25,219 bases of DNA. Source: Verrucomicrobia bacterium UBA1319 (GTDB taxonomy: Bacteria > Verrucomicrobiota > Verrucomicrobiia > Limisphaerales > UBA1319). Shown here piece by piece: positions 688-16,843 of the stretch (positions are counted from its first letter, which is position 1; each line of letters starts with the position of its first letter). The notes beneath the pieces are model-generated. The model made no database searches. It saw only the letters and a list, made by a program, of their open reading frames with translations, and was not told the DNA's origin. The stretch spans positions 13,894 through 39,112 of the forward strand of contig DBTJ01000056.1 in the NCBI GenBank assembly GCA_002306985.1, read 5' to 3'. The position numbers and the translations under genes are program-made.

Positions 688-2811
688 TCAGTGTCCCGTC
701 GCTTTTGAACCGTCGCCCGTCTTCCGGTAATAGAGGATCGCCGATCCCGGAGTGGCGGGAATTTCCAGGCGGAAGGCGGCGAGCCCGGCGCCGGTTACCG
801 CGCGCGTCTCGGCGGAATCCTCAAAACTAACGGTATACCGGGCTTGCGCATCGATGCCGCGCAACGGGAGCGTTTGCGCCAAGTCCAGAGACTGCCCGCG
901 CCGGAAAACCATGGCAAATCCGTCTTGCTCGCGCTCGCGATGGAATTGATAACCGAACCAAGCCGTTTCATTGGTGGCGTGCGAAAATAGGGGGTAAAAA
1001 TCTCCCAGCATGAAGGGGCGTAACTTTCGGTACAACGCGGTGGTGCGTTTCACCGCCGCTTCGACTTCCGGCGAGGGTGTATCCAAGCGGCACTGGGTTT
1101 CGCTTGGGGCGAGGATATTACCGGCCGTCATCGCGCTGCGGAACCCATAAGCGGGCTCCAGTGCGAAGCAACCGCAGCCGTGCAAGGGCACCCAGCGATA
1201 CAGGGCGGCGTTTTGCAGTTGGTCGGGCGTGGGATCGCACTTGCCGCCGCATTGTGAATCGCTGTGCCACAAGGGCAAGCCATAGCGGCAAGCTTCGATA
1301 TCCAACCGCCGCCCGCCACTGGAGCAATTATCGATGATCAAGCCCGGATGCCGTTTTTGCAATTCCGCCCACATGGCGTAGAGTCCTTCGATATGCCGGA
1401 TTTCCGTGATGCCCTGCCGATCCGGCGCGTCGTTGCGCCGCCAGAACCCCAACGGGTCCATGTTAAAATCCCAGCGCAACCAGCCAAGCTGGGCGGCCGT
1501 AATCTGGGTGTCGATAAGGTCCGTAAGCCACTGGCGCGCCACCGGATCATGCAAGCGGAATAGCTGACTCCATTCGCCCTTGGCGGGCATCACCCACTCC
1601 GGGTGCTCTCGGTCGATCCGAGTGCCCGGATGCACTCGCTCCGGCTCGAACCATAGCAAATATTGCAGCCCGGCCGCGCGCACGGCGTCGCCGATGGGCT
1701 TGAGCCCCCGCGGGTATTTATTCGTGTCCACCTCCCAGTTGCCGGTGCCATTCGGAAACCCGCCTGGATACCATTGCTGCGGGTCCATGTCCGACCACAG
1801 CACCTCGACCCCGCGCGCTTTCAACGGCCCGGGCGCGAGGAGGTGCGGTTGCTCGTAAGAACCGTCCGGCGCCGCATAATTGACCGTGCCGCAGATTGGC
1901 GGGTAAACCAGTCGGCCTTCCCGGCGCGGGTAATAATGCGCGAGCGCCAATGAACGAAACAAATTATTGCCGCGCAAATCGTCGCTCCCCCGCCAAAACG
2001 TGATCACGCCGCGGGGTGTGCGCGCCGATTCGCCCGGATGCAGCTTGAAATGCGTGAGTTGCTGGCCCGCGCGCACTCGGAGTTCACCGCTTGGCAGCGT
2101 TTGAAACCCCGCCTCCCACTGGCCTGACCATCCGATGGCGAGCGCCATTCCGCCACCCGGCCAGCCCAGGTTGAAATAAGGCATCCGCCCCTGCGAAGAG
2201 CGCCCGCCCGCCGGCGCGTAAACCCGCTCCCGCGCATCCCCGCCAGCCACGGTTTCCGTCATCGGCGCAAAGCTCAGCGCGGAATTGCCGTCGCCGAGCG
2301 CGTGGTGAATCGTGAACCCGGTCCGCCCTGTATCCAGCCGAAAATCCAAGGCCTGGATCGATTCGAGAATGGGCGTATCCGCCTGGCCGGTGTTCTTGAA
2401 ATACACCACCCAATCGACGGCGGGAAACTCGGGGTAAGTGGCCGCCACACAGCGCACCTCGAGGCCGGTTTTCGGATCGGTCCAAGTGAGCGTTCGAATA
2501 CTTTCGACGGCATTGGTTAGCGAAGCGATCCGGGTGATTCGCACATGATTGCTGTCGAACGCATCCACGCGAGACTCGCGTTGCCAACCGGGTAGCAGCT
2601 CGCTGGATGGCTTCCCGCCATAGGTGAAAGAGAACGGCGCCACCGGCGCGCGGCCAGCCAGATGCTGTTCCATGACCCATCGGAACGCCAGCCCCATTTC
2701 CTCGGGGGTGCCTTCCGCCGCTAGCGCGTTGCCGCCCGCTAAACCGCTCGCGCCAACCAGCAGCAACAGAGCCCAACGCGTGTAACGATTGGAATAGTTC
2801 ATGATTTCCAT
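688..2811 (-). CDS. Secreted alpha-galactosidase, glycoside hydrolase family 36-like (melibiase clan GH-D)
   Basis: ORF 688..2835 (-) of 715 aa. GH36 hallmark motifs as I recall them: nucleophile region 'LRWDFNMDP' (KWDMN-type) and acid/base region 'IDNCSSGGRRLD' (CSSGGGR-type). N-terminal Sec signal peptide (RWALLLLVGASGLAGGNALAAEG). The track start at 2835 is a TTG inside the 89-bp repeat. I prefer the ATG at 2811 (MEIMNYSNRYTRW...), with 2802 as an alternative. Confidence 0.7.
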   Translation of the reverse strand: MEIMNYSNRYTRWALLLLVGASGLAGGNALAAEGTPEEMGLAFRWVMEQHLAGRAPVAPFSFTYGGKPSSELLPGWQRESRVDAFDSNHVRITRIASLTNAVESIRTLTWTDPKTGLEVRCVAATYPEFPAVDWVVYFKNTGQADTPILESIQALDFRLDTGRTGFTIHHALGDGNSALSFAPMTETVAGGDARERVYAPAGGRSSQGRMPYFNLGWPGGGMALAIGWSGQWEAGFQTLPSGELRVRAGQQLTHFKLHPGESARTPRGVITFWRGSDDLRGNNLFRSLALAHYYPRREGRLVYPPICGTVNYAAPDGSYEQPHLLAPGPLKARGVEVLWSDMDPQQWYPGGFPNGTGNWEVDTNKYPRGLKPIGDAVRAAGLQYLLWFEPERVHPGTRIDREHPEWVMPAKGEWSQLFRLHDPVARQWLTDLIDTQITAAQLGWLRWDFNMDPLGFWRRNDAPDRQGITEIRHIEGLYAMWAELQKRHPGLIIDNCSSGGRRLDIEACRYGLPLWHSDSQCGGKCDPTPDQLQNAALYRWVPLHGCGCFALEPAYGFRSAMTAGNILAPSETQCRLDTPSPEVEAAVKRTTALYRKLRPFMLGDFYPLFSHATNETAWFGYQFHREREQDGFAMVFRRGQSLDLAQTLPLRGIDAQARYTVSFEDSAETRAVTGAGLAAFRLEIPATPGSAILYYRKTGDGSKATGH

Positions 2812-2815
2812 GCCC

Positions 2816-2904
2816 CTAGAGTCCTTGAAGCTCAAAACACGTTGTGAACAGATCCAGTTTCAGGAAGCCGGACCGTCAAATAGTTGGGTCCGAGGCTCCG
2901 CCTC
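2816..2904 (+). repeat. Copy 1 of an 89-bp perfect direct repeat (second copy at 23016-23104); contains an imperfect stem-loop agccggacc-N12-ggtcc(ga)ggct
   Basis: Direct comparison by eye: ctagagtccttgaagctcaaaacacgttgtgaacagatccagtttcaggaagccggaccgtcaaatagttgggtccgaggctccgcctc is identical at 2816-2904 and 23016-23104. Flanks diverge immediately on both sides. The element is roughly 51% GC against roughly 60% for its surroundings. Confidence 0.9.
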
Positions 2905-3059
2905 TCCAGGAATGAGTTTTCAGGGCTAGCATGACTTCCCCATGCCGGTTTGACAAGCGCCTTCAAAAAGCTCAAAACGGCACGCACGAACTTTCGCCGC
3001 CCTGACGTGGAACTTCCGCCGCCGCGCTTCAACTAGTCAAAGGCGGCTAATACTTTGAA

Positions 3060-3491
3060 TTACTTCGCACCCTGATCGATCCAGGCGCGAATGAGGCCCA
3101 CTTGCTCGGCCGTCAACGGCTTGCCCATGGGTTTGGGTGGCATCGCCAGGTTTTCATCAATTTGGGCCACGGCGATCAGGAGCGGACTTTTCTCGCTCTT
3201 GCCGGGAACGATCACTTTCCCTTCCTTGCCCCCCTTCAGCAGGGCTTCCAAGTCATCCAAGCGCACACCGGCTTTGGGGCGGTTCTCGCCGTGACATTTG
3301 ATGCAGGCGGCCTCAAATATCGGGCGCACATCCTTGGCATAGGTCAGCCCTTTTTTAGCGGAAGGCGGCGGTAATTTTTCCAGGTTGGGTTCCGCCGCCC
3401 AGGCGCAACCGATCAAGGAAAGAGCCAACGCCGCCAATCCGGTCCGTTTTATGAAACGCGTTTGATGCAACATATTAGTTTTTCCAATCAC
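3060..3491 (-). CDS. Small secreted c-type haem-binding protein carrying only a PSCyt1 (planctomycete cytochrome c) domain
   Basis: 143 aa with a signal peptide (GLAALALSLIGCAWAAEP) and the CxxCH haem motif 'CIKCHGENRPKAGVRLDDLEALLKGGKEGKVIVPGKSEKSPLL...MPPKP...LTAEQVGLIRAWIDQGA'. This matches the PSCyt1 consensus as I recall it (C..CHG..K.GLRLD...PG.P.S.L...MPP...L....I..W). An alternative start is the M at 3473. Confidence 0.75.
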   Translation of the reverse strand: MIGKTNMLHQTRFIKRTGLAALALSLIGCAWAAEPNLEKLPPPSAKKGLTYAKDVRPIFEAACIKCHGENRPKAGVRLDDLEALLKGGKEGKVIVPGKSEKSPLLIAVAQIDENLAMPPKPMGKPLTAEQVGLIRAWIDQGAK

Positions 3492-3654
3492 CCGCCACGA
3501 GCAATCACCAGCCGGGCACCGGCCGCGCTCAACGCGGGTGACATTTTAAGGTTTTGACAAATTAGCGCATGACCGGCGAGGGTGCAACCGGCCCTGCGGC
3601 CCCCACCCATCACCGTTCGAATTCCGCCGCCCGCGAGGCGGTTTAGCACCCTAC

Positions 3655-4170
3655 TTAACCGTGCCGCAAAAACTCCGACATCGCTCGGCCGAACGCGGGC
3701 AGGTCCCGAGGCGTCCGGCTGGAGATCAGGTTGCCATCCTGAACCACGGGTTCATCCACCCAAATGCCCCCGGCATTTTGGAGATCATCCTTGATGCCCA
3801 GCGAACCCGTAACGCGCTTGCCATCCAGGATTTTCGCCGAAATGGGAATCCAGCCTCCGTGGCAGATAAAGGCCACCAGCTTGCCTTGCTCGAAAAACTC
3901 GCGGGTCAAAGCCAGTACCCGGGGGTAACGCCGCAGTTTATCCGGCATAAACCCGCCCGGGATAAGCAATCCGGCGAAATCCGCGCTCCGGGCCTCCTCG
4001 ATGAGCAAATCGGCGACGGCGGGGTAGCCGTGTTTCCCCGCGTAGGTTTTTATTTCCAACCCGGCCGCGCGCGTAACGTAACCGTCCTCCTCCAAGCGCA
4101 GTTTCGGATACCACAATTCAAGTTCCTCATAAAGGTCGTCCACGAAGGCCAGCAGCGATTTCGATTGCAT
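3655..4170 (-). CDS. DJ-1/PfpI family protein (YhbO-like general stress protein / intracellular protease-amidase)
   Basis: Aligns along its length to E. coli YhbO as recalled: 'GKLVAFICHGGWIPISAKIL...GNLISSRTPRDLPAFGRAM', with the nucleophile-elbow Cys in ICHG. The track ORF begins at 4248. I prefer the M at 4170 (MQSKSLLAFVDD...), which matches the family N-terminus and has TTATAT 7 nt upstream. Confidence 0.8.
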   Translation of the reverse strand: MQSKSLLAFVDDLYEELELWYPKLRLEEDGYVTRAAGLEIKTYAGKHGYPAVADLLIEEARSADFAGLLIPGGFMPDKLRRYPRVLALTREFFEQGKLVAFICHGGWIPISAKILDGKRVTGSLGIKDDLQNAGGIWVDEPVVQDGNLISSRTPRDLPAFGRAMSEFLRHG

Positions 4171-4279
4171 GGGAAGATATAAGCCAGGAATGGTGGCGGG
4201 GCAACTTCCCACCCGGGTTCCCCGTTCACTTTCCCCGCTCGACGCCATCCCCCGCGCCGGATAGCATGCGCCATTCCGT

Positions 4280-6646
4280 ATGATTAATGCGCGAAAGGTT
4301 GACCGAACTGTACGAGAGCCGAGGCTGGGGCGTCGCTGCTTTGTTTACTTAGCCATCGCTTGGCTGCTCATGCCGTCCACGGCGTTGCGCGCCCAGAATT
4401 CTAAACCGAACGCGGCCGCCGCTGCGCCGGCGGCCCTGTCCGCCAATCCGGACGCGCAACTGCCCGGAACGCCGGATGAAATCGATCGCGCGATCGCGCA
4501 AATCGAATCCCGGCTCGCGCATGTGCGTGAGCGGGCGACCGCCGCCGCTCCCGAGGCCACCCCGGACGAGCGGGTCGAAAAACAGCGGTTGGTCCAGCAA
4601 TGGACGGCCGCGCTGGACCTGCAATCCCGCCTGTGGCGGCGGTTAAATGACGTTCGCCGCCTCAACCAGGAGCGCGCCACCGAAAGCCAGAACTGGCGCG
4701 GCTTCACCGAGCCCCCGCCCTACTCGCTGGCGTTGGTCGAGGGGCTTCGCGACGCCATCGCGGGGCAGCGCCTCGAAGTGCAAAACCGGCAAATGATGCT
4801 CACGATTTTCGAAAACGGGGTCGAACACGGCGCGGTCCTGCTCGAAAATAGCCGCAAGCAAGCCCGGTTGGTCCGCGACCAGACCGAAGAAACGGACGCG
4901 CCAAGCCCCCGGCGGCTCTGGCTCCTACAGTTGGCTGACGCGCGGGTGCAAGCTCACGAAGCCATGGTCGAAGCGTCCGAAAAAGGGCGGCTCGTCATGC
5001 TCGAATCCCTGAGCGGCCTCCGCCAGTACATCACCTTTCTGGAACGTAAATTGGCCGCCGCCCAAATCCAAGCCCGGTTCACCAAGGCGGATTTCGACGC
5101 CATCCTCGTCCAGCAAAACGACAAACGGGAGGCGTTGCGAATCGAACTTAACGACGTCATCACCAAAGACGCCGAATTACGCCGCGCCCTCGCGGACGCC
5201 CGCGACAGCCTGCGCCAAGCGCAATCGGCCTCCCCCGCCCCACCCGCCGACCGGCTCCAAAGCTTGCGGATCGCCGTGCGGGCGGGGCAAATCCGCGCGG
5301 AAACCAGTGAGTTCAAAGTGGACTTCCTGCGAGGCTTCCAAGTTCTGGCGGATAAGAGCCAGGACTTGTGGGAAGACCGTTTCTGGGCCACATCCAACCA
5401 CTCGCTAGCCGAGTTGCGAAACAAGCGCCAGGTCTGGCTCGACACCTATGAAACGTTGCGCCCCTGGAAAATCTACGCCGAATTGAAACTTTCCGCCGCC
5501 GCGCAAGCTTCAAACGAAGCCAACGGCCTATCCGGCCCGCATGAATCCACGGAGGAACAAGAACTGGCGAAGCAAAGTCAGCCCGCCTTGGATGAACGGG
5601 TCGCGATTTGCCAGCGCGCGTTAAATAAATTCGCCCAGCTGGAAAATCTCCGCGAACGGCTGCTGGCGGACTTGGCGGAGCAAGAAGGAAAGTTATCCTT
5701 CACCAGTAAAGCCCAGTACGTGCTCGATGGCCTCCACGCCTTTCTCGGCCGCCTCTGGAACACCGAACTGTACGTCGCGGAAGCCTCGGTCATCGCCGAC
5801 GGCCAAAAGATTTCCGTCCCGCGCATCATCACGCTCGGCAAAGTCGCCATCGCCCTGGGCATTTTTATGTCCGGAATGGCCGTTGCGCTCTGGGGTCGAG
5901 GCGCGGTGAAACGGACCGCCTTTCGCTGGTTCAAGGCCGGAGATCTGGCCGCCGACATCGCCGCCAAAACCGCCGCCGGTCTGGCTGTGATCATCGCCCT
6001 ATTCGTAGCCATGGCGTCGGTCCGCATTCCCTGGACCATCTTCGCCTTCATGGGCGGCGCGCTGGCCATCGGAGTCGGCTTCGGCGCGCAAACACTCATC
6101 AATAATTTCATCAGCGGCTTGATCTTGCTATTCGAACAGAGCATCCGCGCGGGCGACATTGTGCAGGTGGGCGGCCAACGCGGGCGCGTGGACTTCATCG
6201 GCTTCAGAAACTCGCTGATCCGGCGCCCGGACGGCGTGGACGTGCTGGTGCCCAACAGCAAATTTCTCGAATCGGAAGTCGTCAACTGGACGCTCACGGA
6301 CAACCTCGTGCAATATAAAATTGCCGTGGGCGTAGCCTATGGCTCGTCGTTGAATAAAGTATCCGCCCTCCTCGCGCAGGCCGCGCAGGAACATCCGACC
6401 ACCATGAAAACTCCGGCGCCAAAAGTGTTGCTGGAGGAATTCGGCGACAACACCTTGATGTTCGCGCTGGTATTCTGGATCAGCCTGCGCCCCGGCGTGG
6501 ACGACTCGATGGTTCGCAGCGAATTGCGCCACCGCATCCACGCGCTGCTTGAACAGGCGGGCATCGCCCTCGCCTTCCCGCAACGCGATGTGCATCTGGA
6601 TTCCACTACCCCCATCGAAGTGAAAATCGTGAATCCACCCGCATAA
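4280..6646 (+). CDS. MscS-family mechanosensitive channel with a long N-terminal periplasmic coiled-coil domain (MscK/KefA-like architecture)
   Basis: 788 aa: signal peptide, then about 480 aa of Q/E/R/L-rich coiled coil, three predicted TM helices (aa 520-600), then the MscS core signature 'LINNFISGLILLFEQSIRAGDIVQVGGQRGRVDFIGFRNSLIRRPDGVDVLVPNSKFLESEVVNWT'. Confidence 0.85.
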   Translation: MINARKVDRTVREPRLGRRCFVYLAIAWLLMPSTALRAQNSKPNAAAAAPAALSANPDAQLPGTPDEIDRAIAQIESRLAHVRERATAAAPEATPDERVEKQRLVQQWTAALDLQSRLWRRLNDVRRLNQERATESQNWRGFTEPPPYSLALVEGLRDAIAGQRLEVQNRQMMLTIFENGVEHGAVLLENSRKQARLVRDQTEETDAPSPRRLWLLQLADARVQAHEAMVEASEKGRLVMLESLSGLRQYITFLERKLAAAQIQARFTKADFDAILVQQNDKREALRIELNDVITKDAELRRALADARDSLRQAQSASPAPPADRLQSLRIAVRAGQIRAETSEFKVDFLRGFQVLADKSQDLWEDRFWATSNHSLAELRNKRQVWLDTYETLRPWKIYAELKLSAAAQASNEANGLSGPHESTEEQELAKQSQPALDERVAICQRALNKFAQLENLRERLLADLAEQEGKLSFTSKAQYVLDGLHAFLGRLWNTELYVAEASVIADGQKISVPRIITLGKVAIALGIFMSGMAVALWGRGAVKRTAFRWFKAGDLAADIAAKTAAGLAVIIALFVAMASVRIPWTIFAFMGGALAIGVGFGAQTLINNFISGLILLFEQSIRAGDIVQVGGQRGRVDFIGFRNSLIRRPDGVDVLVPNSKFLESEVVNWTLTDNLVQYKIAVGVAYGSSLNKVSALLAQAAQEHPTTMKTPAPKVLLEEFGDNTLMFALVFWISLRPGVDDSMVRSELRHRIHALLEQAGIALAFPQRDVHLDSTTPIEVKIVNPPA

Positions 6647-6794
6647 ATCACACCCCAATCCACCCAGCAAGCCGCCAGCGGTAGTTTGCTTTCACCGCGG
6701 CCGGGGCTTTAACCCGGCCTCCCAGGTCAAGGCGTAAAACAGCATCACATCGGCGTATAAAAAGCCCGAAGCCAAATTGGCGACGAATTGCCGC

Positions 6795-7097
6795 TCACCG
6801 CCACCCTAATGAAAGGCCGCCGAACGCCAACCTCTGGATCATCGCGGGAACAACCTGAAATTCCCGCGTCAGCTTGGCCAATTTGTCCCCATCGTGGCAC
6901 CCTTCAACCAAACCTAATCCCATGTCGGTGGCGGTGACGCCCATGCCCATGATAATAGGGGCGGAAGCAATATCTCCTCCCGTTTCACGCCCGGCGCCAG
7001 CCAGCCATTCCGCAAATCCCGCCAAGGCGCCGCGCGGCGCGCCAGGCCAGATGTTTTTCCAGCAAGAGAGCCGTGTTCGCCTAGCCGCGAAAATCAT
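6795..7097 (-). CDS. Hypothetical small ORF, possibly a gene remnant; the frame stays open upstream to about 7252 without a convincing start
   Basis: 100-aa ORF whose C-terminal half looks protein-like (AGAGRETGGDIASAPIIMGMGVTATDMGLGLVEGCHDGDKLAKLTREFQVVPAMIQ). Third-position GC is only about 60% against about 75% in confident genes here. The same-frame stretch upstream (7098-7252) is Arg/Trp-rich and not protein-like. I recognise no family. Confidence 0.25.
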   Translation of the reverse strand: MIFAARRTRLSCWKNIWPGAPRGALAGFAEWLAGAGRETGGDIASAPIIMGMGVTATDMGLGLVEGCHDGDKLAKLTREFQVVPAMIQRLAFGGLSLGWR

Positions 7098-7356
7098 CCT
7101 CCAGGCAACCGGACGCCAGCGCCCTAATCGTATCGAAATACCAGGCGCATTCAGGATACGACGCCAAGGGTCGCCCCTCCAATTCTTGCAGCGTTTGGCG
7201 CCATCAGCGCGACAAGTGACGCCGCAAATCCGGGTAGCGTTTGTCCCCCGTTGCTAGCTCACAATATCCCAAAGTCGAGTTCAAGGTGACCAGGTACGCG
7301 CCTTCGTTTCGGTATTCCGCGAGTTGGGATAAATCATTGCCGGGCGACCGTAATTC

Positions 7357-7686
7357 CTAGGCTGCTATCGGAATTAGGAGGTCCATGAACTTGCGCATTT
7401 GTTTTTTGGCGGGCGCTCTTTCCGCCGAGTTTTTGAAGGCGAGATTAGCATAAGCTGGCGCCGGAATGGCGAACGGATAAAGGCGGCCTGCGGGGACTAT
7501 GTCGCAGTCTTTCAAAACTCGCGAGCGAGACGCCTCCGGCTTTTCCAGCCAGGCGTCAAATCCACGCCTCAAACGTTGCGCCACCCCCGCGACCACCCGC
7601 GCCGGGGACGTGTCCGATTGGGCGGGCGGAGTTTTCTCGAACATCCCCGCTAGAGCGGGGTTGGTGGCGACCAAATGGGCATTCAC
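7357..7686 (-). CDS. Hypothetical small ORF (109 aa, GTG start); may be spurious or a fragment
   Basis: ORF-track entry starting at GTG 7686. No recognisable motif. It is in a different frame from 6795..7097, with a 259-bp gap between them. The surrounding 1.4 kb has no confident gene. Confidence 0.2.
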   Translation of the reverse strand: MNAHLVATNPALAGMFEKTPPAQSDTSPARVVAGVAQRLRRGFDAWLEKPEASRSRVLKDCDIVPAGRLYPFAIPAPAYANLAFKNSAERAPAKKQMRKFMDLLIPIAA

Positions 7687-7795
7687 CCAAACCGCCAGGA
7701 AAGGAACGATCGGCAGCCATCGCAGGAAACCACGCGGGTGAATTTAAGCGGCCTATTTTCGGCCACCCCAAAAGACCCGTTGATTATTGCGAGAT

Positions 7796-7824
7796 TTGAC
7801 AATTAGCTAAACTGTGTGATAAGT
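7796..7824 (+). promoter_or_regulatory. Sigma70-like promoter candidate: TTGACA (7796-7801), 17-nt spacer, ATAAGT (7819-7824); a second TATAAGT lies at 7833-7839
   Basis: Seen directly: gatTTGACAattagctaaactgtgtgATAAGTtggcgctgTATAAGT. An AT-rich island in GC-rich DNA, about 270 nt upstream of the flotillin start on the same strand. Confidence 0.4.
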
Positions 7825-7848
7825 TGGCGCTGTATAAGTCAGCCTAAG

Positions 7849-7872
7849 TTGTCTTTCCTTCCTGAAAGACAA
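7849..7872 (+). promoter_or_regulatory. Perfect 9-bp inverted repeat ttgtctttc / gaaagacaa around a 6-nt loop (cttcct), about 25 nt downstream of the candidate -10
   Basis: Seen directly. There is no downstream U-tract, so it is not a classical terminator. It may be an operator or a 5'-leader hairpin for the flotillin transcript. Confidence 0.4.
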
Positions 7873-8094
7873 CGCGGGGGAACCAAATTCCCGGCTTGCG
7901 CGGGGGGACATACGTGCCAGCGCAGCCAGGACGGGGCGCAAGGCCGCGGGCAACCGCGACCAAGGTCACTTTCAAGACCAAGCCCGTCAGCTAACCTCGT
8001 CGGCCATTGGAAGGGCGACCCTCTTACGCCGCGGAATAACGGCGCACAAGCTCACCCCGTAAAAACAAGCGGCGCCACGCCAGGGCTTTGACTC

Positions 8095-9921
8095 ATGGCG
8101 ACGCGCCAAGCATTGGAGCAAACTATGCACGCAGATATCGCGGTTTTAGCCGCCTTAACCTTGAGTCAGTGGGGCTGGCTGGGAATTGGCGCGCTCGGCG
8201 CGTTGCTGGCCGCCCCCATCGTTACGGGCGCGGTGTTCATTCACGAACGGCAGGTGGGCGTGGTGATTAAAAAATTCGGTTCCCGCTCGCTCGCGCCCGG
8301 TCAGCTCATCGCCCAAGCGGGCGAATCGGGTTACCAGGCGGACACGCTGCCCCCGGGGCTGCACTTCGGCTACTGGATCTGGCAATATCGCGTGATCAAG
8401 GCGCCGGTCATCATCGTGCCCCAGGGCGAAATCGCGCTGGTCGTGGCCGCCGCCGGAGCGTCGATTCCGGCGGAACGGATCTTGGGCAAGATTGTCGCTT
8501 GCGACCATTTCCAAGATAGCCGAAAATTCCTGGCCGACGGCGGCGAGAAAGGCCGTCAATTGGGCATCCTCACTTCCGGCACGTACCGGATCAACAGCGC
8601 CTTGTTCAACGTGATCACCAGCAAGAACGCGATGAATCACGGGATGATGCCCGGGCAACTCCAGTTGCTCCGGGTCGAGCCGGACCAAGTCGGCATGGTC
8701 ACCACGCTCGATGGCAAACCCATCGAAACCGGCGAAATCGCGGGAGCCATCGTGGAAGGACACGACAATTTCCAGAATGGCCAGATCTTTCTCGACCACC
8801 TGGGCCGCCGCGGCTTGCAGGAGCAAATTTTGCTCTCGGGCACCTGGAATTTGAACCCGTGGTTGGTACAGGTGGAGCAAGTGCCCATGGTGCAAATCCC
8901 CATCGGCTATGTCGGCGTCGTCATTTCCTATGTGGGCATGGCGCATGAAGACGTAAGCGGCGCGGCCTTCAAACACGGCGACCTAGTGAATACCGGGCAC
9001 AAAGGCGTCTGGGTGTCCCCGCTATATCCCGGGAAACACCCGATCAACACGCGCATTATGAAAGTGGAGCTGGTGCCCACGACCAACATCGTGCTCAACT
9101 GGGCCAGTCGCACCGAGTCGCACAACTACGACGCCAAGCTTTCGTCGATCACCGTGCGTTCGCGGGACGGTTTCGGTTTCAATCTCGACGTGGCGCAAAT
9201 CATCCACGTGGGCGCGCTGGACGCGCCCAAGGTGATTTCCCGCGTTGGGTCGATGCAAAACCTTGTGGACCACGTACTGCAGCCGATTGTGGGAAATTAT
9301 TTCCGCAATTCGGCGCAAAACCACACGGTGCTCGATTTTCTCGGCGCGCGCAGCGAACGCCAGAAGGAGGCCGCCGAACACATTCGCGCCGCTCTGGGAG
9401 CGTACGATGTCCAAGCCATCGACACGTTGATCGGCGATATCAATCCGCCCGCCGAGCTGATGCAAACCCAAACGGATCGTAAAATCGCCGAAGAACAGCG
9501 CAAGACTTACGAGGTGCAGGAGGCGGCGCAAAAGCAGCGGCAGCAATTGGTCCGGCAAACATCCCTGGCCGATATCCAGCATCAAGTGGTCGGCGCGGAG
9601 CAAGGCGTGAGCATCGCCGAATTAACGGCCAACGCCCACATCAAACAGGCCACCGGCAACGCCGAAGCCGTGCGGCTTCAAGCCCATGGCGAGGCGGAAG
9701 CGATCCGCGCCACCGGCACGGCCAAAGCCGAGGCCTATCGCGCGGGAGTCGAAGCGCTCGGCGCGCCAGGCTACACCGTGATGCAATTGATGCAGACCGT
9801 GGGCGAACGGAATGTCCGCATCGTGCCCGATGTGGCGGTTACCAGCGGATCGCGCACCGGACTAGTGGATGCCATGCTGGCCATGCTCATCAAAGAGCGG
9901 CAGGACGCCAAGCCCGTTTAA
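8095..9921 (+). CDS. Flotillin-like SPFH/band-7 protein (YqiK/FloT family) with an N-terminal membrane anchor
   Basis: 608 aa. N-terminal TM segment (IAVLAALTLSQWGWLGIGALGALLAAPIVTGAVFI), an SPFH-like region, then the flotillin-type Ala/Glu-rich repeat tail: 'EVQEAAQKQRQQLVRQ...LQAHGEAEAIRATGTAKAEAYRAGVEALGAPGYTVMQLMQTV'. This resembles the E. coli YqiK 'AEAEAYRIRTVAEAEA...KAEAYRQYNQAAL' region as recalled. Confidence 0.7.
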   Translation: MATRQALEQTMHADIAVLAALTLSQWGWLGIGALGALLAAPIVTGAVFIHERQVGVVIKKFGSRSLAPGQLIAQAGESGYQADTLPPGLHFGYWIWQYRVIKAPVIIVPQGEIALVVAAAGASIPAERILGKIVACDHFQDSRKFLADGGEKGRQLGILTSGTYRINSALFNVITSKNAMNHGMMPGQLQLLRVEPDQVGMVTTLDGKPIETGEIAGAIVEGHDNFQNGQIFLDHLGRRGLQEQILLSGTWNLNPWLVQVEQVPMVQIPIGYVGVVISYVGMAHEDVSGAAFKHGDLVNTGHKGVWVSPLYPGKHPINTRIMKVELVPTTNIVLNWASRTESHNYDAKLSSITVRSRDGFGFNLDVAQIIHVGALDAPKVISRVGSMQNLVDHVLQPIVGNYFRNSAQNHTVLDFLGARSERQKEAAEHIRAALGAYDVQAIDTLIGDINPPAELMQTQTDRKIAEEQRKTYEVQEAAQKQRQQLVRQTSLADIQHQVVGAEQGVSIAELTANAHIKQATGNAEAVRLQAHGEAEAIRATGTAKAEAYRAGVEALGAPGYTVMQLMQTVGERNVRIVPDVAVTSGSRTGLVDAMLAMLIKERQDAKPV

Positions 9922-9942
9922 CCCAGCCACTCCTCGCACTCG

Positions 9943-9988
9943 CCCGGCAAGGCGGCGCCCCCGCCACGCGCTTTGCCGGGTTCTTTTA
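9943..9988 (+). terminator. Rho-independent terminator candidate downstream of the flotillin gene
   Basis: 8-bp perfect stem cccggcaa (9943-9950) / ttgccggg (9973-9980) enclosing an inner ggcgg/ccgcc pair, followed by ttctttta (9981-9988). Confidence 0.6.
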
Positions 9989-10158
9989 TGGCCGAAAGCC
10001 CCAACTGGTATTCACGATGGCAAGCCCCGCGGACAACTTCCAGGCGGTACTTCCGATTTGTAATCCAGCGGCGCGGCAAATTCTGGGGCAAAGGTTAACC
10101 GCACTTCGTATTTTTTAGCTTTTGCCAAGCCTCGTACCCTGTATAAAGGGGCCGCAAA

Positions 10159-12240
10159 ATGAAAACCAAACCAACTCACGAATGTTCCATTCGTCCCTTC
10201 CCGGGAATGAAATCCGCTTACTTGGCCGCATCCTTGGCGGGACTCCTAGGCTCGACTTGCCTCGCCTCGGCGGCCGAGGAGTCCCAAGGTCGAGATCTTT
10301 ACTCGGACACCTGGGTGGCGCAAGACGCCCTGGGCCGCAAGCTGCCTTCCTTCGCCGAAGTGGGGCCGGTTAAGCAGGGTCAGCGCCGCGTGGTGGGCAT
10401 TTTTTACATCACCTGGCACAGCGATTCGTTGGGCACGCTCAAAAGCCCTTATCTGGCGGACGTCAGCCGCGTGCTCGCGGGCGACCCCACCGCCCGACTG
10501 GACGCCAAGCATCCGTCCTGGATCGAGAGTTCCTATCATTGGGGCGAACCCGAGGCGGGCTATTTCCTAAGCAAGGACGAATACGTCATCCGCAAGGATA
10601 TGGCTATGCTTGCCGACGCCGGGGTGGACGTGCTGGTGATGGACGTCACCAACGCCGTCCGTTATTGGGACGAGTGGGAAGTGGTTTTCACGGTGATGGA
10701 AAAGATGAAGGCGGAAGGCAACCGGGTGCCCAAATTCTGTTTCTGGGCGTTCAACGGCCCGGCCATCACCGTGGTGCAGGATTTGTACGACAAAATCCAC
10801 AAACCGGGGCGGTTCAAAGATCTGTGGTTCGATTGGGATGGCAAACCCCTGCTCCTGTGCAACGGCAACCCCAGTGTGGACGCCAATGGCCAGGGCGTGA
10901 AAAACCCAAACCCGCACTACGAACCCGCCGCGAAAACGGACTCCAAGCATCCCCACTATGGCGACCCGGATTACGCCGAGGAGTTTTACCGGGATTACAC
11001 CAAAGAAGTTAAAAACTTTTACACCTTGCGCACCATGTGGTGGGGCTATTACGAATGGGCCGGAAAACGTTTCGTTGGCACCGAGGATAATTGGAGCTTC
11101 GGGCTGGATATGGGCGATAAGCACGTGAAGGCGATGAAGCCGGACGAGCTCGTTTCCAAGCATAACGGCAAAAAAGAGGAAGCGGCGGTGACGCCCGCGC
11201 AGCATCCCTCGAGCTTGATCGGCAAATCCTGGACCAAAGAACACGGCGAACCGGCCTTGAACGAGCAGGATCTTCCCGAGCCCACCTACGTGCCCTGGCT
11301 CGGCAAAAAAGTGGCGCATCCCGAAGGTTACGGTATCTATTTTCAAGAGCGCTGGAATGACGCGCTGCAAAGCGATCCGGAGTTCCTCTACATCAACGAT
11401 TGGAACGAATGGACCGCCGGCAAGTACTCCCCTGAAAACAACGGCAAGACGCCCTTCATGCGCCGAGACAGCAATTACTTTTTCGTGGATCAGTACAACG
11501 CCGAATTCAACCGCTGCATCCAGCCCATGAAAGGCGGCTACACGGACAATTACTATATGCAGATGGCCCAGAACATCCGGCGCTACAAAGGCGTCCGCCC
11601 CCTGCCGTCCGCGCACGGCTTTAGCCGGGTCAAGATCGACGGCCAATTCGCGGACTGGGCGGGCGTCACTCCGGAGTATCGCGACACGGTGGGCGACACG
11701 TTCCACCGCAACTACGCGGGTTACGGCGGCTTGCGCTACACCAACGACACCGGCCGCAACGACATCATCGCCAGCAAAGCCGCCGTCAGCCGCGACGCGG
11801 TATATTTTTACGCGCAAACCCAGGAGGCGCTCACGCCCCATACGGGCAGCAATTGGATGCTCCTCTTCATCGACGCCGACTTAAACCCCGACACGGGATG
11901 GTGCGGCTACGACTATGTCATCAATCACCAGGTGATTGACGGCAAGACCACCACGATCAAGCGTTACGCCCCCAACACCCCCGGCGGCCCGTGGATCGAA
12001 GTGGCGCGAATTCCCTTGCGCCACGCCGGCAACGCGCTCGAACTGGCCATCCCACGCGAACTGCTCGGGCTCAAGGGGAACACCTTCACCTTCGACTTTC
12101 ATTGGAGCGACAATCCCTCGGATCTGACCGATCCCATCTCGCTTTGCACCAGCGGCGACAGCGCCCCAAACCGACGGTTCAATTACCGCTTCGTATGGGA
12201 AAAATCGGCCGCCCCGGCGGCTCGCGCCAGCGCGCAATAA
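10159..12240 (+). CDS. Secreted putative glycoside hydrolase (N-terminal TIM-barrel-like domain plus C-terminal beta-sandwich); family not assignable by eye
   Basis: 693 aa. Signal peptide (MKSAYLAASLAGLLGSTCLASAAEE); an alternative start is the M at 10207. The alternating beta/alpha pattern with acidic and aromatic motifs (VVGIFYITWH, DVLVMDVTN, YWDEWE, FLYINDWNEWTAG) is typical of GH TIM barrels. The C-terminal approximately 200 aa are beta-rich. TATAAAG lies 12 nt upstream of the 10159 ATG. Confidence 0.45.
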   Translation: MKTKPTHECSIRPFPGMKSAYLAASLAGLLGSTCLASAAEESQGRDLYSDTWVAQDALGRKLPSFAEVGPVKQGQRRVVGIFYITWHSDSLGTLKSPYLADVSRVLAGDPTARLDAKHPSWIESSYHWGEPEAGYFLSKDEYVIRKDMAMLADAGVDVLVMDVTNAVRYWDEWEVVFTVMEKMKAEGNRVPKFCFWAFNGPAITVVQDLYDKIHKPGRFKDLWFDWDGKPLLLCNGNPSVDANGQGVKNPNPHYEPAAKTDSKHPHYGDPDYAEEFYRDYTKEVKNFYTLRTMWWGYYEWAGKRFVGTEDNWSFGLDMGDKHVKAMKPDELVSKHNGKKEEAAVTPAQHPSSLIGKSWTKEHGEPALNEQDLPEPTYVPWLGKKVAHPEGYGIYFQERWNDALQSDPEFLYINDWNEWTAGKYSPENNGKTPFMRRDSNYFFVDQYNAEFNRCIQPMKGGYTDNYYMQMAQNIRRYKGVRPLPSAHGFSRVKIDGQFADWAGVTPEYRDTVGDTFHRNYAGYGGLRYTNDTGRNDIIASKAAVSRDAVYFYAQTQEALTPHTGSNWMLLFIDADLNPDTGWCGYDYVINHQVIDGKTTTIKRYAPNTPGGPWIEVARIPLRHAGNALELAIPRELLGLKGNTFTFDFHWSDNPSDLTDPISLCTSGDSAPNRRFNYRFVWEKSAAPAARASAQ

Positions 12241-12289
12241 CCCGTCGCTTGCCGGGCAATTACGCCAAAGCGCCCGCGCGTTGGAGCGA

Positions 12290-12345
12290 CAAAAAAACCG
12301 CGGGGCTGGCCCCCGGTACTTGGCCAGCCCCTGATCTAGGTTTTA
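12290..12345. terminator. Bidirectional intrinsic terminator between convergent genes
   Basis: Perfect 10-bp stem ggggctggcc (12302-12311) / ggccagcccc (12322-12331) with a 10-nt loop. An A7 run lies immediately upstream (this is the U-tract for the minus-strand gene) and ...ctaggtttta downstream for the plus-strand gene. Confidence 0.7.
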
Positions 12346-12386
12346 TGGGTAAATGAACCGGGGCTCGCGCCCCGCGCGCGGCCTCG

Positions 12387-14063
12387 CTATTTCGGTCGCA
12401 ACCGCCCGCCATTCGCCAGCGTGTACGTCTTGCCATCAAGCCATCGGTTGGCGGCCAGGCTGGCGTCATAGCGCACCTCATGGCCATCGCCGCGAATATT
12501 GGGGATGGCGCCATCCACGATGCTTTTGGCATCGGTGAAGCTCGTAACCAGGGAATCTTTGGTCACCACCCAGGTGCTGGTGGCATCGAGCGCGAGCGCG
12601 CCGCCTTGAATCGCGCCGGTTAGCGTTGTTCCATTGCGCAAGGAGGCCGACACCGAGCTGATTTTGTCGCAAGTGATATCGCCCGCCAGGGTCTGGCCGT
12701 CGGCGGTGAACACGGCATGGCCGCCATTCGCTCCGCTGCGTCCCCAGCGACCCGCGCTGGCGTTGATGAGCACTCCGGAGGCGGCCACCACTTCGACGCC
12801 GGACAAGTCGATGACCCCCGTCGAATTCGCCACGTAAAACAGCGGCCCGGCGGCGGCTTTGAACGATCCGCCTTTCATCGTAAAGGCGCCCCGCCGGCCC
12901 TCGGCGTCGCCCGAAAAACTCTGGTAAATCATCACTCCGCATTTGGCGGCGCAGGTGAGCGCGCAATTCGTCAAGGTGACGGAGTTTTTTCCCTCGATCA
13001 CGACCGCCTCGGAAGCGGTGGCGGTAAAGGTGGCGCCGGAAGCCTGAATAGCGCCGGTCGAATAGATCCCCGGTGACGTGGTGCCGCGAGTCGTCATCGC
13101 GCCGCCCTCGACGTAAACCATGCCGCCGCCGCGGTCCGTGGCCACAGCCGCCGCGCGGGTGCGCGAGGTGGTAATCGTCACATTGGTGAGCGCCAAAGCG
13201 CCGCGCGCGCTCGCCATCGCCCCGTGGCCCGCGTCGCCGGCCGCCACAATGGTCCCGCCAGTCATCGCCACGGACGAGCCTATGCCTGAGGCAAAAAGCC
13301 CGTTAGCCCCGTGGCCGGTGGTTTTGATCGAACCGCCCAGCAGCGTGATTTTGCCCCCCTTGGCGGCGAGTACTCCGGCGTTAAGCCCGTAAAAACTGCT
13401 GTTTTCTTCGGAAGACGTATGGCCGCTGGTGACCACGATCGGATTGTCCAAGCTCAGTTTGCCGCCGTTCAAGACGCACACGCCGGAGACGTCCATATTC
13501 GTCGAAACATACGTCCCACCGGTGAAATTCGTGACAATCCCGTCCACCAGCAACACCCCGCTCAGCTTATAAGCGCCTCGCTCGCCCGTGCCTGGCGGAC
13601 GGTTGGAGGACTTGGATTTGCCCCCGGGACCACGATTAGAGGGAGGCCTGCCGGAGTCGCCACCGAACGAGGGTCCGCCCGCATCGAACGACGAGCGGCC
13701 GCCACTCCGCTCCGAGAAACCACCACTGGAGCTTGCGCCACTGACACTACTCACCGAGGACTGATCCTCGCCACCGCCGCCGGACATCGGTCCACCCTCG
13801 TCTCCGCCCGGCATCGGCTCCCCTTCCTCAGCGCCGCCCGGTCCGCCGTCCGGTCCGCCACCAGGCCCGCCGCCAGGACCGCCACCGGATGGCGGCTCCT
13901 GCCCCTTTACCCCACTAGCGGGGCCGACCGCCAGCAACGCCAAAATCAGCGCCCCCGCCGCGCCGCGGCAGAAATTACGGAGGCCGACACCGCCCGATTT
14001 CACCACCACAACGTCTGCGCGCCTATCCCGGTTGCGATCCTCTTCAGGTTTCATAACTTTCAT
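12387..14063 (-). CDS. Secreted protein with an approximately 110-aa Gly/Pro/Ser-rich low-complexity linker followed by a repetitive beta-helix-like (pectate-lyase-fold / adhesin-like) domain
   Basis: 558 aa with a signal peptide (GAAGALILALLAVGPASG). Linker residues 55-165 read 'PPSGGGPGGGPGGGPDGGPGGAEEGEPMPGGDEGGPMSGGGG...SGGRSSFDAGGPSFGGDSGRPPSNRGPGG'. The remainder is Gly/Thr/Ser/Ala/Asn-rich with periodic 'TGG', 'NGG', 'GxIxL' and 'VT..T' strands typical of right-handed beta-helices. The C-terminus shares a module with other secreted proteins here (see findings). Confidence 0.55.
   Translation of the reverse strand: MKVMKPEEDRNRDRRADVVVVKSGGVGLRNFCRGAAGALILALLAVGPASGVKGQEPPSGGGPGGGPGGGPDGGPGGAEEGEPMPGGDEGGPMSGGGGEDQSSVSSVSGASSSGGFSERSGGRSSFDAGGPSFGGDSGRPPSNRGPGGKSKSSNRPPGTGERGAYKLSGVLLVDGIVTNFTGGTYVSTNMDVSGVCVLNGGKLSLDNPIVVTSGHTSSEENSSFYGLNAGVLAAKGGKITLLGGSIKTTGHGANGLFASGIGSSVAMTGGTIVAAGDAGHGAMASARGALALTNVTITTSRTRAAAVATDRGGGMVYVEGGAMTTRGTTSPGIYSTGAIQASGATFTATASEAVVIEGKNSVTLTNCALTCAAKCGVMIYQSFSGDAEGRRGAFTMKGGSFKAAAGPLFYVANSTGVIDLSGVEVVAASGVLINASAGRWGRSGANGGHAVFTADGQTLAGDITCDKISSVSASLRNGTTLTGAIQGGALALDATSTWVVTKDSLVTSFTDAKSIVDGAIPNIRGDGHEVRYDASLAANRWLDGKTYTLANGGRLRPK
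13835..13895. repeat. Imperfect tandem 12-bp repeat (ccgccNccNggN, x5) encoding (G)GGP repeats of the low-complexity linker
   Basis: Seen directly: ccgcccggt ccgccgtccggt ccgccaccaggc ccgccgccagga ccgccaccggat on the plus strand, which reads GGGPGGGPGGGPDGGPGG on the minus strand. Confidence 0.6.
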
Positions 14064-14217
14064 CAGTTTGATGCCTTCAACTGTTGAGAGCTTACGCCTT
14101 CGAAGCTTAAGAAAGCATTAAACCCGCGAAGTATTCCGAAGATTTCAGGTTACAAATGCGCCACGGAACTAACGCACCCAAGCGCCGACTAGAGTGATCG
14201 ACGTTTTTTTGCGGCAC

Positions 14218-15861
14218 TTACCCATCGAGTGGTTCCCAGCGCCGCTGGCCAATCCGAGTTCGCAATCCAATATAAGCCGCGATCGCCAGCCCGGATTCCA
14301 CGAACACCAACCACCCAAACCAGCCACCGGACCAAGCCGCCGCCGCCAGCCCGGACAACACCAACGACAATAACATCAATCCGAACATGCTGAGCCCGCG
14401 CCCGGCGCTTTTCGCCTCCTCCGAGGGCGCCGAGAACGGCACAAACGCCGCTGTCGCGCAAGGTACCAGCGAAATGGCCGGCAGGGCGATGAGCCCCGGC
14501 AACAACAGCAATAATTGGGAACGATCCGGAGCCAAAAACCAAGCCGCAACCGCATACACAACCAGCAGTGGCGCCAACAATAGCCATACCACCGCCTGCC
14601 GCGCGCCCAGGGCGAGCGGCGCGGGCCCGGCGAGCGGGGCCAATCGGAACAAATCCGCCGCCTGCCATTGTTGCGAAAACCGCAGCATCTGCATCGCTAA
14701 CACGGGAATCAGACAAATATAGGTGCCGCCCAGCACGATGCCAAACGAGCCCAGGCCAGCTTTGCCATGGCTTTGCCACAGCAGCAATATGGGAAACACG
14801 AGCAGCGGCGCCAAACCGGGAAAAACGCGCAGCTTGACCTCGCGGTCGCGAACCAAGTAAGCTGCGGCAAGCAGAAACGAGGCGCGCGCGACCGGATCGC
14901 GCAACCCCCAGCAAAGGGGCGGCAGACCCGCCAGACGGTTAAGCCAGCGGCGCGGGGAACCGGGGGGCGACGGCCGGGCGGGCGCCGCCTCAGAGAGCGT
15001 TTGCAGTCCCAGTTCATAGTCGCGCGCCAATCGGCCAAACGACAACCAGAGCACGCCCGTCGTAACGACCACGCCAAACGCCCCCAGCGCCCATGAACTA
15101 GCGTCGCCGCTCCCCGCCAAGGCATCGTCGAAACCCGCGAACCACGCCGGTGGCAGCAAGCCAACCCACCACGCCTCCAGGCTCAGCGGCGCGCGGTCGG
15201 AAAACCGCCCGAGCAATTGCGGCGCCAGTTGCGCGCCCAGCACGGCAAAGATAGCCGTGAACACTTGGGCGGTGGTCATCACGCCATCCAGCCGCTCGCG
15301 GCCGAACCAGCGCAGGCAGAGCTGATACACGAGCACGACGGACCCGGCGCAAAAAAGCGCCGCCAGCACCGTCGAAAGGGCATGCGCCAGCGGGAAGCCC
15401 CAGCCGCCGTTGCGGCACCAGACCCCCACAAAGAACCCCGTCAAATTGAAAGCCCCCGCCAGCCAAAGGGAAACTTGCGCCAGCACCCCGACTTTCGCCC
15501 GCAGTAAAGCTTTCGGCGTCACCGGCCGGTGCAGCAAAATATCCGCCTCCTGGGAGTTGAATAGCATCTCGCCCGCCGAGCCCGCCACGAGCATCCCCAA
15601 AAATACCAGCGTCATCGCGTGCAAATAGAGCGCGAGCCCGAACACGGGTTTTCCCCAAAAGACGAACGCCATGAGCCCCATCAAGGTGTAAATCACCAAA
15701 GTTAACAGCAGCCTGGAGCCGATGGATTTTGGCGCGCTTTCCTTATGCAGCCCCCGCGCGCTCCGGCCGCGCAGGAAGAGCGTGAGAAAGAGCCGATGGA
15801 GCGTGCGCTCCATGGAGGGCGCCCTCGGGATGGGCGGCGACTGGTTGGCGGCGGCGCTCAT
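14218..15861 (-). CDS. ABC-2-type exporter permease, unusually long (547 aa, roughly 12 predicted TM helices, apparently two fused 6-TM halves)
   Basis: Highly hydrophobic with many predicted helices. Its start overlaps the stop of the upstream ABC ATPase gene by 4 bp (15858-15861), which implies translational coupling in an operon. Confidence 0.6.
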   Translation of the reverse strand: MSAAANQSPPIPRAPSMERTLHRLFLTLFLRGRSARGLHKESAPKSIGSRLLLTLVIYTLMGLMAFVFWGKPVFGLALYLHAMTLVFLGMLVAGSAGEMLFNSQEADILLHRPVTPKALLRAKVGVLAQVSLWLAGAFNLTGFFVGVWCRNGGWGFPLAHALSTVLAALFCAGSVVLVYQLCLRWFGRERLDGVMTTAQVFTAIFAVLGAQLAPQLLGRFSDRAPLSLEAWWVGLLPPAWFAGFDDALAGSGDASSWALGAFGVVVTTGVLWLSFGRLARDYELGLQTLSEAAPARPSPPGSPRRWLNRLAGLPPLCWGLRDPVARASFLLAAAYLVRDREVKLRVFPGLAPLLVFPILLLWQSHGKAGLGSFGIVLGGTYICLIPVLAMQMLRFSQQWQAADLFRLAPLAGPAPLALGARQAVVWLLLAPLLVVYAVAAWFLAPDRSQLLLLLPGLIALPAISLVPCATAAFVPFSAPSEEAKSAGRGLSMFGLMLLSLVLSGLAAAAWSGGWFGWLVFVESGLAIAAYIGLRTRIGQRRWEPLDG

Positions 15862-16628
15862 AACCGGAAGGTTTTAGCGAAATCCTCGGCCCGGCGCTCG
15901 ATCTCCGCGCCACCCGTCAGCCGCGTGAACAGCTTCTCCAGCGTCCCGGCTTGATGCGACGCCACCAGCTCGTCCGGACGCCCATCCAGCAACAGGCGCC
16001 CCTGGTCGATAATCAGGACGCGTTCGCACACCTTTTCCACCACGTCAAGAATATGCGAGCTATACACGATCGTCTTGCCCTCGCGCGCGAGCGTTTGAAT
16101 CAAGGCCTTGAACCCCACGGCCGCGTTCGCATCCAAGCCGTCCAGGGGCTCGTCGAAGAATACCACCGGCGGGTTATGGAGCAACGCCGCGGTGATCACC
16201 ACTTTGCGCCGCATGCCCTTCGAATACGCGCCCAGCAGTTTGTCCGTGAGCGTTTCGAAACTGAGATCGAAAAACGCGAGAAACTGCCGGATGCGCTCCC
16301 GGGCCGCCGCCTCCGGAATTCCGTACAAAGCGGCCACCATCTCCAAATACTCCAGCCCGGTGAGCGACTCGTAAACGGCTCCCGAGTCCGGCACAAACCC
16401 GGTCTGACGCTTCACTTCCAAGGTGTCGGTGGCCAGATCGAACCCCGCCACCGTGGCCGTGCCGCTGGTCGGCGTAAGCATACCCGTGAGCATCTTCAGC
16501 GTGGTGGTTTTACCCGCCCCGTTCGGCCCGAGAAAACCGACGATCTGACCGGCGGGAATATCGAAGGAAAGCCCCGCCACCGCCATTTGCGCGCCAAATC
16601 GTTTCACCAAGTTTTGGAGGTGGATCAT
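15858..16628 (-). CDS. ABC transporter ATP-binding protein (ABC-2 / bacitracin-type subfamily)
   Basis: Walker A 'GPNGAGKTT', Q-loop, signature variant 'YSKGMRRKVVITAALL' (the YSxGMxQR type seen in ABC-2 exporters), Walker B 'VVFFDEPLDGLD', H-loop 'YSSHIL'. 256 aa. Confidence 0.9.
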   Translation of the reverse strand: MIHLQNLVKRFGAQMAVAGLSFDIPAGQIVGFLGPNGAGKTTTLKMLTGMLTPTSGTATVAGFDLATDTLEVKRQTGFVPDSGAVYESLTGLEYLEMVAALYGIPEAAARERIRQFLAFFDLSFETLTDKLLGAYSKGMRRKVVITAALLHNPPVVFFDEPLDGLDANAAVGFKALIQTLAREGKTIVYSSHILDVVEKVCERVLIIDQGRLLLDGRPDELVASHQAGTLEKLFTRLTGGAEIERRAEDFAKTFRL

Positions 16629-16636
16629 GTGCGACC

Positions 16637-16678
16637 CGTTTATATCCTAATCCACTCGTTTTAGCCAGAATATAAACG
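16637..16678. promoter_or_regulatory. Perfect 9-bp inverted repeat cgtttatat (16637-16645) / atataaacg (16670-16678), each half containing a TATAAA-like box, immediately upstream of the ABC ATPase start codon (16628)
   Basis: Seen directly. The proximal half (gATATAAAC, minus-strand sense) lies 8-16 nt upstream of the ATG, suggesting a promoter -10 with a palindromic operator and a very short leader. Confidence 0.4.
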
Positions 16679-16843
16679 ACATCAAAGACGTTTTTGACGC
16701 CGACGAATCCAGCAATCAAGAGATTATGCCCGCCCCGGGAAGCGTCGGGATTCTTCCAATCCCTTCACCCCCTCTTATAGGGGCGAGCATTCGAACCTGT
16801 CAGCGGCCAAGCCGCTTCGCCCGGTCACCTCCGAACCGGCGAT

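Follow-up and report, generated by a model that had tools for sequence, protein, structure and literature searches.

The window, the whole 25,219-nt stretch of DNA from Verrucomicrobia bacterium UBA1319 that was analysed, holds two copies of a short sequence, each at the 5' end of a gene for a secreted protein. A PSCyt1 cytochrome c gene (3060-3491) and a Melibiase/GH36 gene (688-2811), both on the minus strand, are separated by a 248-nt spacer that contains copy 1, and copy 2 lies between a 1052-aa ORF (19580-22738) and the signal peptide of an SBBP beta-propeller protein. The interval between the copies also includes an MscS-type channel gene (4280-6646), publicly named 'potassium-dependent mechanosensitive channel'. 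About 1.2 kb downstream of that gene is the sole Rfam match in the window, a c-di-AMP (ydaO/yuaA) riboswitch (7831-8020, plus strand; 49.6 bits against a gathering threshold of 38, E = 6.6e-9), which forms the leader of a 608-aa SPFH/Band 7 gene (8095-9921). The features at the two copies are, in window coordinates:

688-2811, minus strand: Melibiase/GH36 gene, encoding a signal peptide; it adjoins copy 1 and lies outside the element
2816-2905, plus strand: element copy 1, 90 nt, CTAGAG...GCCTCT
2869-2904 and 23069-23104, plus strand: best-conserved part of the element (positions 54-89/90), the proposed origin-like end with two small hairpins
2906-2909, plus strand: target-type tetranucleotide CCAG (CNAG), adjoining the right end of copy 1
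22974-24584, plus strand: public call of the SBBP beta-propeller gene, which adjoins or contains copy 2
23016-23105, plus strand: element copy 2, 90 nt, CTAGAG...GCCTCG
23106-23109, plus strand: target-type tetranucleotide CTAG, adjoining the right end of copy 2

The terminal sequences of the element are CTAGAGTCC on the left and GGGTCCGAGGCTCCGCCTCG on the right.

Comparison of the window sequence with itself upheld the observation from which this analysis set out, an exact 89-bp direct repeat at a distance of 20,200 bp: positions 2816-2904 and 23016-23104 are 100% identical and in direct orientation. Other exact direct repeats in the 25-kb window reach at most 15 nt, so that a chance origin can be excluded. 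The first-pass annotation had also described sharp boundaries to the identity, and while the identity itself stands, the right edge is less abrupt than described, with a weak similarity that runs six bases past the 89-mer (TCCAGG vs GCTAGG, 4/6 match). The true unit is 90 nt long (2816-2905 and 23016-23105), the two copies differing solely at base 90 (T vs G; 98.9% identity). The element is indeed AT-richer than its surroundings, with the earlier GC figures of about 51% vs 60% now revised to 52.8% for the 89-mer and 60.3% for the window. An 11-mer from the left part of the element (AAGCTCAAAAC) recurs at 2968-2978, 63 nt to the right of copy 1 and near a TTGACA, and includes the 10-mer previously recorded at 2969-2978. 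A wider kinship of this site with the element did not hold up, as extended homology was not found around 2968-2978 and the local score was equalled by 1.25% of random windows; the recurrence is probably due to chance, a tiny remnant of the element being conceivable.

With respect to the neighbouring genes, copy 1 is antisense to the GH36 gene and lies 4 nt from its ATG at 2811, as had been reported, and it takes the place of the sequence directly upstream of this start codon. Copy 2 is in the sense orientation to the SBBP gene and lies inside the longest SBBP ORF, which is the publicly called 536-aa ORF with its ATG at 22974. An in-frame TTG at 23121 opens the hydrophobic SBBP signal peptide, and the gap between the end of copy 2 and this codon is 15 nt, where 17 had been given earlier. 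Frame +1 of the element is open, and deletion of the 90 nt leaves the ATG at 22974 in frame. In SBBP orthologues a short signal peptide begins close to where TTG 23121 stands, and the public 536-aa call is probably over-extended because the orthologues carry such short peptides, with the true start probably nearer 23121. The N-terminus is thus probably over-extended, or else bears a 30-residue insert derived from the element; copy 2 correspondingly either belongs to the 5' UTR of SBBP or adds 30 residues to its N-terminus. The 536-aa protein listed by both NCBI and JGI reads through the element and is a probable annotation artefact.

Both loci are also present in independent assemblies. Window positions 2881-18041 are matched at 100% identity by a Logan contig from SRR5325166 that starts 25 nt inside copy 1, a start consistent with the branching of a k=31 assembly graph at repeated sequence. 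In detail, positions 1-30 of this contig (SRR5325166_266) correspond to window 2881-2910, so that the start falls at 25 nt where ~30 nt would be expected for k=31; this offset could reflect a further copy or variant with a TCCAGG flank in the sample, or trimming of the contig end. In the JGI sample 3300075153, a 106,892-bp contig covers the copy-1 locus with an identical 248-nt spacer, and a 12,258-bp contig covers the copy-2 locus, where the SBBP product (536 aa, ATG 22974) is identical to that of the window, element-encoded residues included. Gene order and spacer lengths across both copies agree between these contigs and the window. The repeat is not an assembly artefact, which the SRR5325166 and JGI 3300075153 contigs rule out. 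Both JGI contigs stop inside a 547-aa gene of unknown family (14218-15861, minus strand), for which gene callers choose another start codon that yields 531 aa; the contig ends and the start discrepancy suggest strain variation or low coverage at this gene.

Outside the window, further copies were reached first at the protein level and then with short exact words. A six-frame translation of the repeat, concatenated and used as a protein query, gave a single match (P0001), the C-terminus of which is a read-through of the minus strand of the element, and the contig of this match, L004 (Logan SRR4102226), holds a copy with 91% identity. Two GenBank metagenome contigs, L005 (MTLE01004656.1) and L006 (MTLE01004850.1), were then retrieved with a 20-mer chosen from a conserved block that the window and L004 have in common. 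L006 and L004 are two assemblies of one locus, an ORF6N gene, with an element copy 91.1% identical, whilst L005 is a new locus whose copy is 95.6% identical to window copy 2. The neighbours in L005 are ordinary chromosomal genes, including those for squalene-hopene cyclase, an ABC transporter and Lgt, and here too the copy lies upstream of a gene start. Four independent insertions are therefore known (two in the window, L005 and L006), all exactly 90 nt long, with identical ends, without indels and with unrelated flanks. Pairwise identities are 94-96% between the window copies and L005, 90-91% between the window copies and L006, and 88.9% between L005 and L006. In the broad sense of the term the element is a MITE, being a short non-coding unit with shared ends found at several unrelated loci (n = 4).

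Other searches were negative. A 24-mer from the middle of the element was absent from genome and metagenome contigs, a 21-mer from its left block was absent from genome contigs, and a collection of 185,579 species-representative genomes contained none of the 20- to 24-mers used as queries. The element was not found in viral contigs (two scans) or in plasmids (BLAST), and an nhmmer profile run over all fetched loci (~120 kb) found no further or degenerate copies. The known copies in the host genome number at least two. A literature search on the accession numbers found no publication; the element family is previously undescribed, and the kind of feature is ordinary.

All window proteins checked were singletons at 90% clustering, and relatives at ≥90% identity were not found. 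The closest SBBP orthologue, on a contig referred to as L008 (MTLE01011570.1, GCA_003575165.1; 62% identity), has no element upstream; SBBP orthologues, at no more than 62% identity, are too divergent for an empty-site comparison at the nucleotide level. L005, L006 and L008 all belong to one metagenome assembly, which therefore includes a relative of the window organism, possibly the bacterium that carries the L005 and L006 copies.

For the copy in ORF6N, a homologue without the insertion shows the empty site. In L006 (positions 2158-9433, also in L004) the element sits within a type I restriction-modification operon that encodes HsdS, a 276-aa protein, an ORF6N protein (PF10543), a Fic-like protein and HsdR. 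It lies inside the ORF6N gene, the two halves of which share one frame, and inserts exactly 30 codons, two of them in-frame stops, into the invariant core of the protein, where they separate AMLS from SVLRS. This 30-codon insert is unique to L006 and absent from all seven aligned homologues (seven out of 7,962 matches), in which the motifs that flank it, ...YAFTEQGVAMLS and SVLRS...AVxVN, are invariant. In the DNA of an intact homologue, L007, the empty site reads ..GCCATGCTTT^CAAGCGTACTC.. (..ATGCTTT^CAAGCG..), and the filled site in L006 reads ..GCCATGCTAT, then the element (CTGGAGTCC...GCCTCG), then CAAGTGTGTTG.., with CAAGTG as the right flank. L006 and L007 thus differ by the 90 nt of a clean insertion, with a 1-nt ambiguity at the junction but without a target duplication of ≥2 nt; L007 is a homologue at 71% protein identity and not a sister strain. 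Translational bypass or an in-frame peptide insertion at ORF6N was considered and rejected on account of the two in-frame stops and the lack of matched take-off and landing codons. This copy provides an example of the element inactivating a gene of a defence island.

The consensus of the element is 5'-CT(A/G)GAGTCC...GCCTC(G/T)-3'. The right flanks of the four insertions begin with CCAG, CTAG, CTAG and CAAG, which can be written as CNAG, or CTNG on the bottom strand. CNAG has a background of 0.0187 per position in the window, and its presence at 4/4 sites would arise by chance with a probability of ~1e-7, a value to be read in the light of the motif having been picked post hoc. At the left terminus three copies have CTAG and one has CTGG, which resembles the target. 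Terminal inverted repeats were absent from the end sequences (left CTAGAGTCCTTG compared with the reverse complement of the right, CGAGGCGGAGCC) and from the 25 longest inverted-repeat pairs listed; the strict definition of a MITE, with terminal inverted repeats and a target-site duplication, does not describe this element. A perfect CTAG on both sides of two of the four copies (copy 2 and L005) can be read as a 4-nt target duplication, but a real duplication of this kind is contradicted by the empty site of L006 and by the CTAG/CCAG pair of copy 1.

The right 36 nt of the element are almost invariant and contain two potential hairpins, CGGACC-N12-GGTCCG and GAGGC-TCC-GCCTC, with a DNA fold of -8.4 kcal/mol that departs weakly from expectation (z -1.7). 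A hairpin at the left end is restricted to the L005 variant (-4.5 vs -1.1 kcal/mol). Variable columns fall mostly in the left part (10/12 in positions 1-54 and 2/12 in positions 55-90), an asymmetry that falls short of significance (Fisher p = 0.11). Variation is greatest in the middle of the element, the source of the 24-mer.

The reading that we favour, and consider likely, is that the repeat is a MITE-sized, non-autonomous and non-coding element of 90 nt that transposed recently, most likely mobilised in trans by an HUH transposase of the IS91 kind. Among the options raised by the first-pass annotation, it is the miniature mobile or REP-like element that the evidence bears out: copies of the same length and with the same ends occur at unrelated loci, and one of these interrupts a gene for which the empty site was found. 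The identity of the window copies at 89 of 90 positions indicates recent transposition in this genome, with the transposase encoded elsewhere; neither the window nor L005 or L006 has a gene for any kind of transposase, and the searches yielded no full-length parent element. The absence of a target duplication, the absence of terminal inverted repeats and the specific tetranucleotide at one end argue for an HUH-type over a DDE enzyme. Within the HUH group the anatomy appears closest to miniature rolling-circle derivatives of the IS91 family, and less close to those of IS200/IS605. The IS91 family would provide the best fit because of the lack of a target-site duplication (L006/L007 junction), the target tetranucleotide at the origin end with a related tetranucleotide at the terminator end (four sites, for a motif chosen post hoc), the putative palindromes, and the precedent of miniature IS801.

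In the proposed mechanism, an IS91-like HUH transposase, of the single-strand or rolling-circle type, would act on the element in trans. The origin would be the conserved right end, where two small hairpins stand beside the target tetranucleotide, and the termination site would be the target-like CTAG at the left terminus, with a single-stranded circle re-inserting beside another CNAG. Read on the bottom strand, the putative layout would be CTNG followed by the origin-like end with two hairpins and, at the far end, CTAG. A more far-reaching proposal, which we put forward tentatively and with more doubt than belief, is that the element is a natural minimal substrate for rolling-circle transposition (IS91/HUH Y2), in which 90 nt comprise an origin and a CTAG terminator, with CTAG/CNAG as the target, active in an uncultured lineage of the PVC group. 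If true, this would be the smallest known mobile unit of the rolling-circle class and the first MITE-like family assigned to it, and it would define the minimal cis requirements for rolling-circle transposition.

A derivative of IS200/IS605 (a PATE or REP-like element), moved by a Y1 HUH transposase and inserted 3' of CTNG on the bottom strand, is an unlikely but still live alternative. Like members of that family (PMC3201880, PMC6006769), the 90-nt unit has asymmetric ends, lacks a target duplication, carries small hairpins close to its termini and has its target tetranucleotide at one specific end. Mobilisation of this type would yield an equal lack of duplication and the same target-adjacent pattern. 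IS608, however, is cleaved at sites away from its hairpins, and these sites pair with a guide tetranucleotide located 5' of the foot of the hairpin (PMC3201880). Neither this spacing nor the guide pairing was apparent on inspection of the 90-nt sequence, in which the terminal hairpin lies 1 nt from the junction and the complement of CTAG is absent 5' of either hairpin foot. The likeness between the target and the far-end tetranucleotide is also more typical of the IS91 family.

That the element is a classical MITE of a DDE transposase (of the IS5, IS630 or IS701 type, for example), with CTAG as the target and a duplication of CTAG or of its central TA, seems quite improbable. CTAG or TA targets are typical for several DDE families, and CTAG stands at both junctions of copy 2 and L005. 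Against this, terminal inverted repeats are lacking, and the L006/L007 comparison leaves a 1-nt ambiguity but no further duplicated bases, with CTGG at the left junction and CAAG at the right. Copy 1, furthermore, pairs CTAG with CCAG although its other 89 nt match copy 2. A TA duplication around an 88-nt element was also considered and rejected as incompatible with the L006 junction.

A role in gene expression, as a cis-regulatory cassette or small RNA that spread between the two secreted-protein genes through gene conversion, had also been raised. In its favour are the position of both window copies at gene 5' ends and that of the L005 copy upstream of a gene start. We consider it very improbable. 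Orientation to the genes is mixed, the element being antisense to GH36, sense to SBBP and within ORF6N, where it destroys the coding sequence. The fold of the whole element is no better than that of shuffled sequence (z -0.64 and -0.07), and RNAalifold, run on both strands of the collected copies, gave predicted pairs with no compensatory or covarying changes. Nothing relevant came from Rfam, whether searched at the gathering threshold or with permissive E-values (the best match near the element had 11.2 bits, E = 5.8), and when the surroundings of copy 1 were scanned, the element was free of patterns for a sigma-70-like promoter or an intrinsic terminator. The suggestion of a gene-converted cassette or structured RNA is accordingly not supported by these analyses.

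Scarcely credible is the further suggestion of att-like sites, or edges of a mobile or amplifiable segment of 20.1 kb, for although two direct copies lie 20.2 kb apart and homologous recombination between 89-bp repeats is possible in principle, the remaining copies are solitary and at unrelated loci in chromosomal or defence-island settings, the window has no integrase or recombinase gene (an absence from the segment that had been noted correctly), and the 20-kb interval shows no compositional discontinuity and carries ordinary chromosomal genes, including the riboswitch-controlled SPFH gene.

A recently transposed miniature element explains the striking perfect repeat without a regulatory or island-boundary role. 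That it stands next to the start of two genes for secreted proteins is then a side effect of insertion, which may alter a 5' UTR or an N-terminus. On this reading, a mobile element has recently been active in this uncultured lineage, with insertions at the starts of genes and within defence genes. The direct 89-bp copies are a plausible deletion substrate for the 20.1-kb block of glycoside-hydrolase and transporter genes, and amplification is also conceivable. Should the rolling-circle assignment be true, the element would offer a compact model of the minimal ends that such transposases need, and a handle for locating the cognate transposase in PVC-group genomes.

When compared with known systems, the anatomy of the element is somewhat unusual, being without inverted repeats and without a target duplication, and with a CNAG target. 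Rickettsia palindromic elements resemble it in having a length that is a multiple of three (90 nt here) and a fully open reading frame. The difference is that the ORF6N copy adds two stops and breaks the gene, and tolerated or expressed element peptides are unsupported for the 90-nt element. Classical MITEs such as Correia/NEMIS and MITEPsy1 are, like the element, ~100 nt long, non-coding, dispersed, and found beside gene starts and inside genes, but they have terminal inverted repeats and target duplications (4 nt in the case of MITEPsy1; PMC3189936), both of which are lacking here. The IS200/IS605-derived PATEs and the REP/RAYT system share with it the absence of a duplication, hairpins near the ends, insertion at a short motif and dispersed non-coding copies; unlike REP sequences, the element is not a single GC-rich palindrome or an inverted doublet, and a high copy number is unsupported.

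The nearest likeness, drawn from anatomy only, is to the miniatures of the IS91 family. Members of this family insert without target duplication beside CTTG, GTTC or GTCC (T at position 2) at the origin end, have one or two subterminal palindromes at that end, and carry a target-like tetranucleotide at the terminator cleavage site (PMC13181058). One imperfect subterminal palindrome at terIS is a further mark of the family. A mini-IS91 has an 89-bp terIS and an 82-bp oriIS (PMC13181058), and miniature IS801 derivatives of 229, 360 and 679 nt were mobilised in vivo in Pseudomonas syringae with an intact right (origin) end and a target-like tetranucleotide at the left terminus, the left-end stem-loop being unnecessary (PMC3189936). 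The 90-nt element differs from these in its far smaller size, in its target of CTAG (CNAG) rather than CTTG, GTTC or GTCC, and in its host, an uncultured bacterium, probably of the PVC group to judge by the PSCyt1 domain, rather than a proteobacterium. Like the IS91 miniatures, it lacks target duplications and terminal inverted repeats, has its target at the right end (CTNG on the bottom strand, with T at position 2) and a target-like far end, bears two small putative subterminal palindromes at the origin-like end, and, being non-coding, needs mobilisation in trans.
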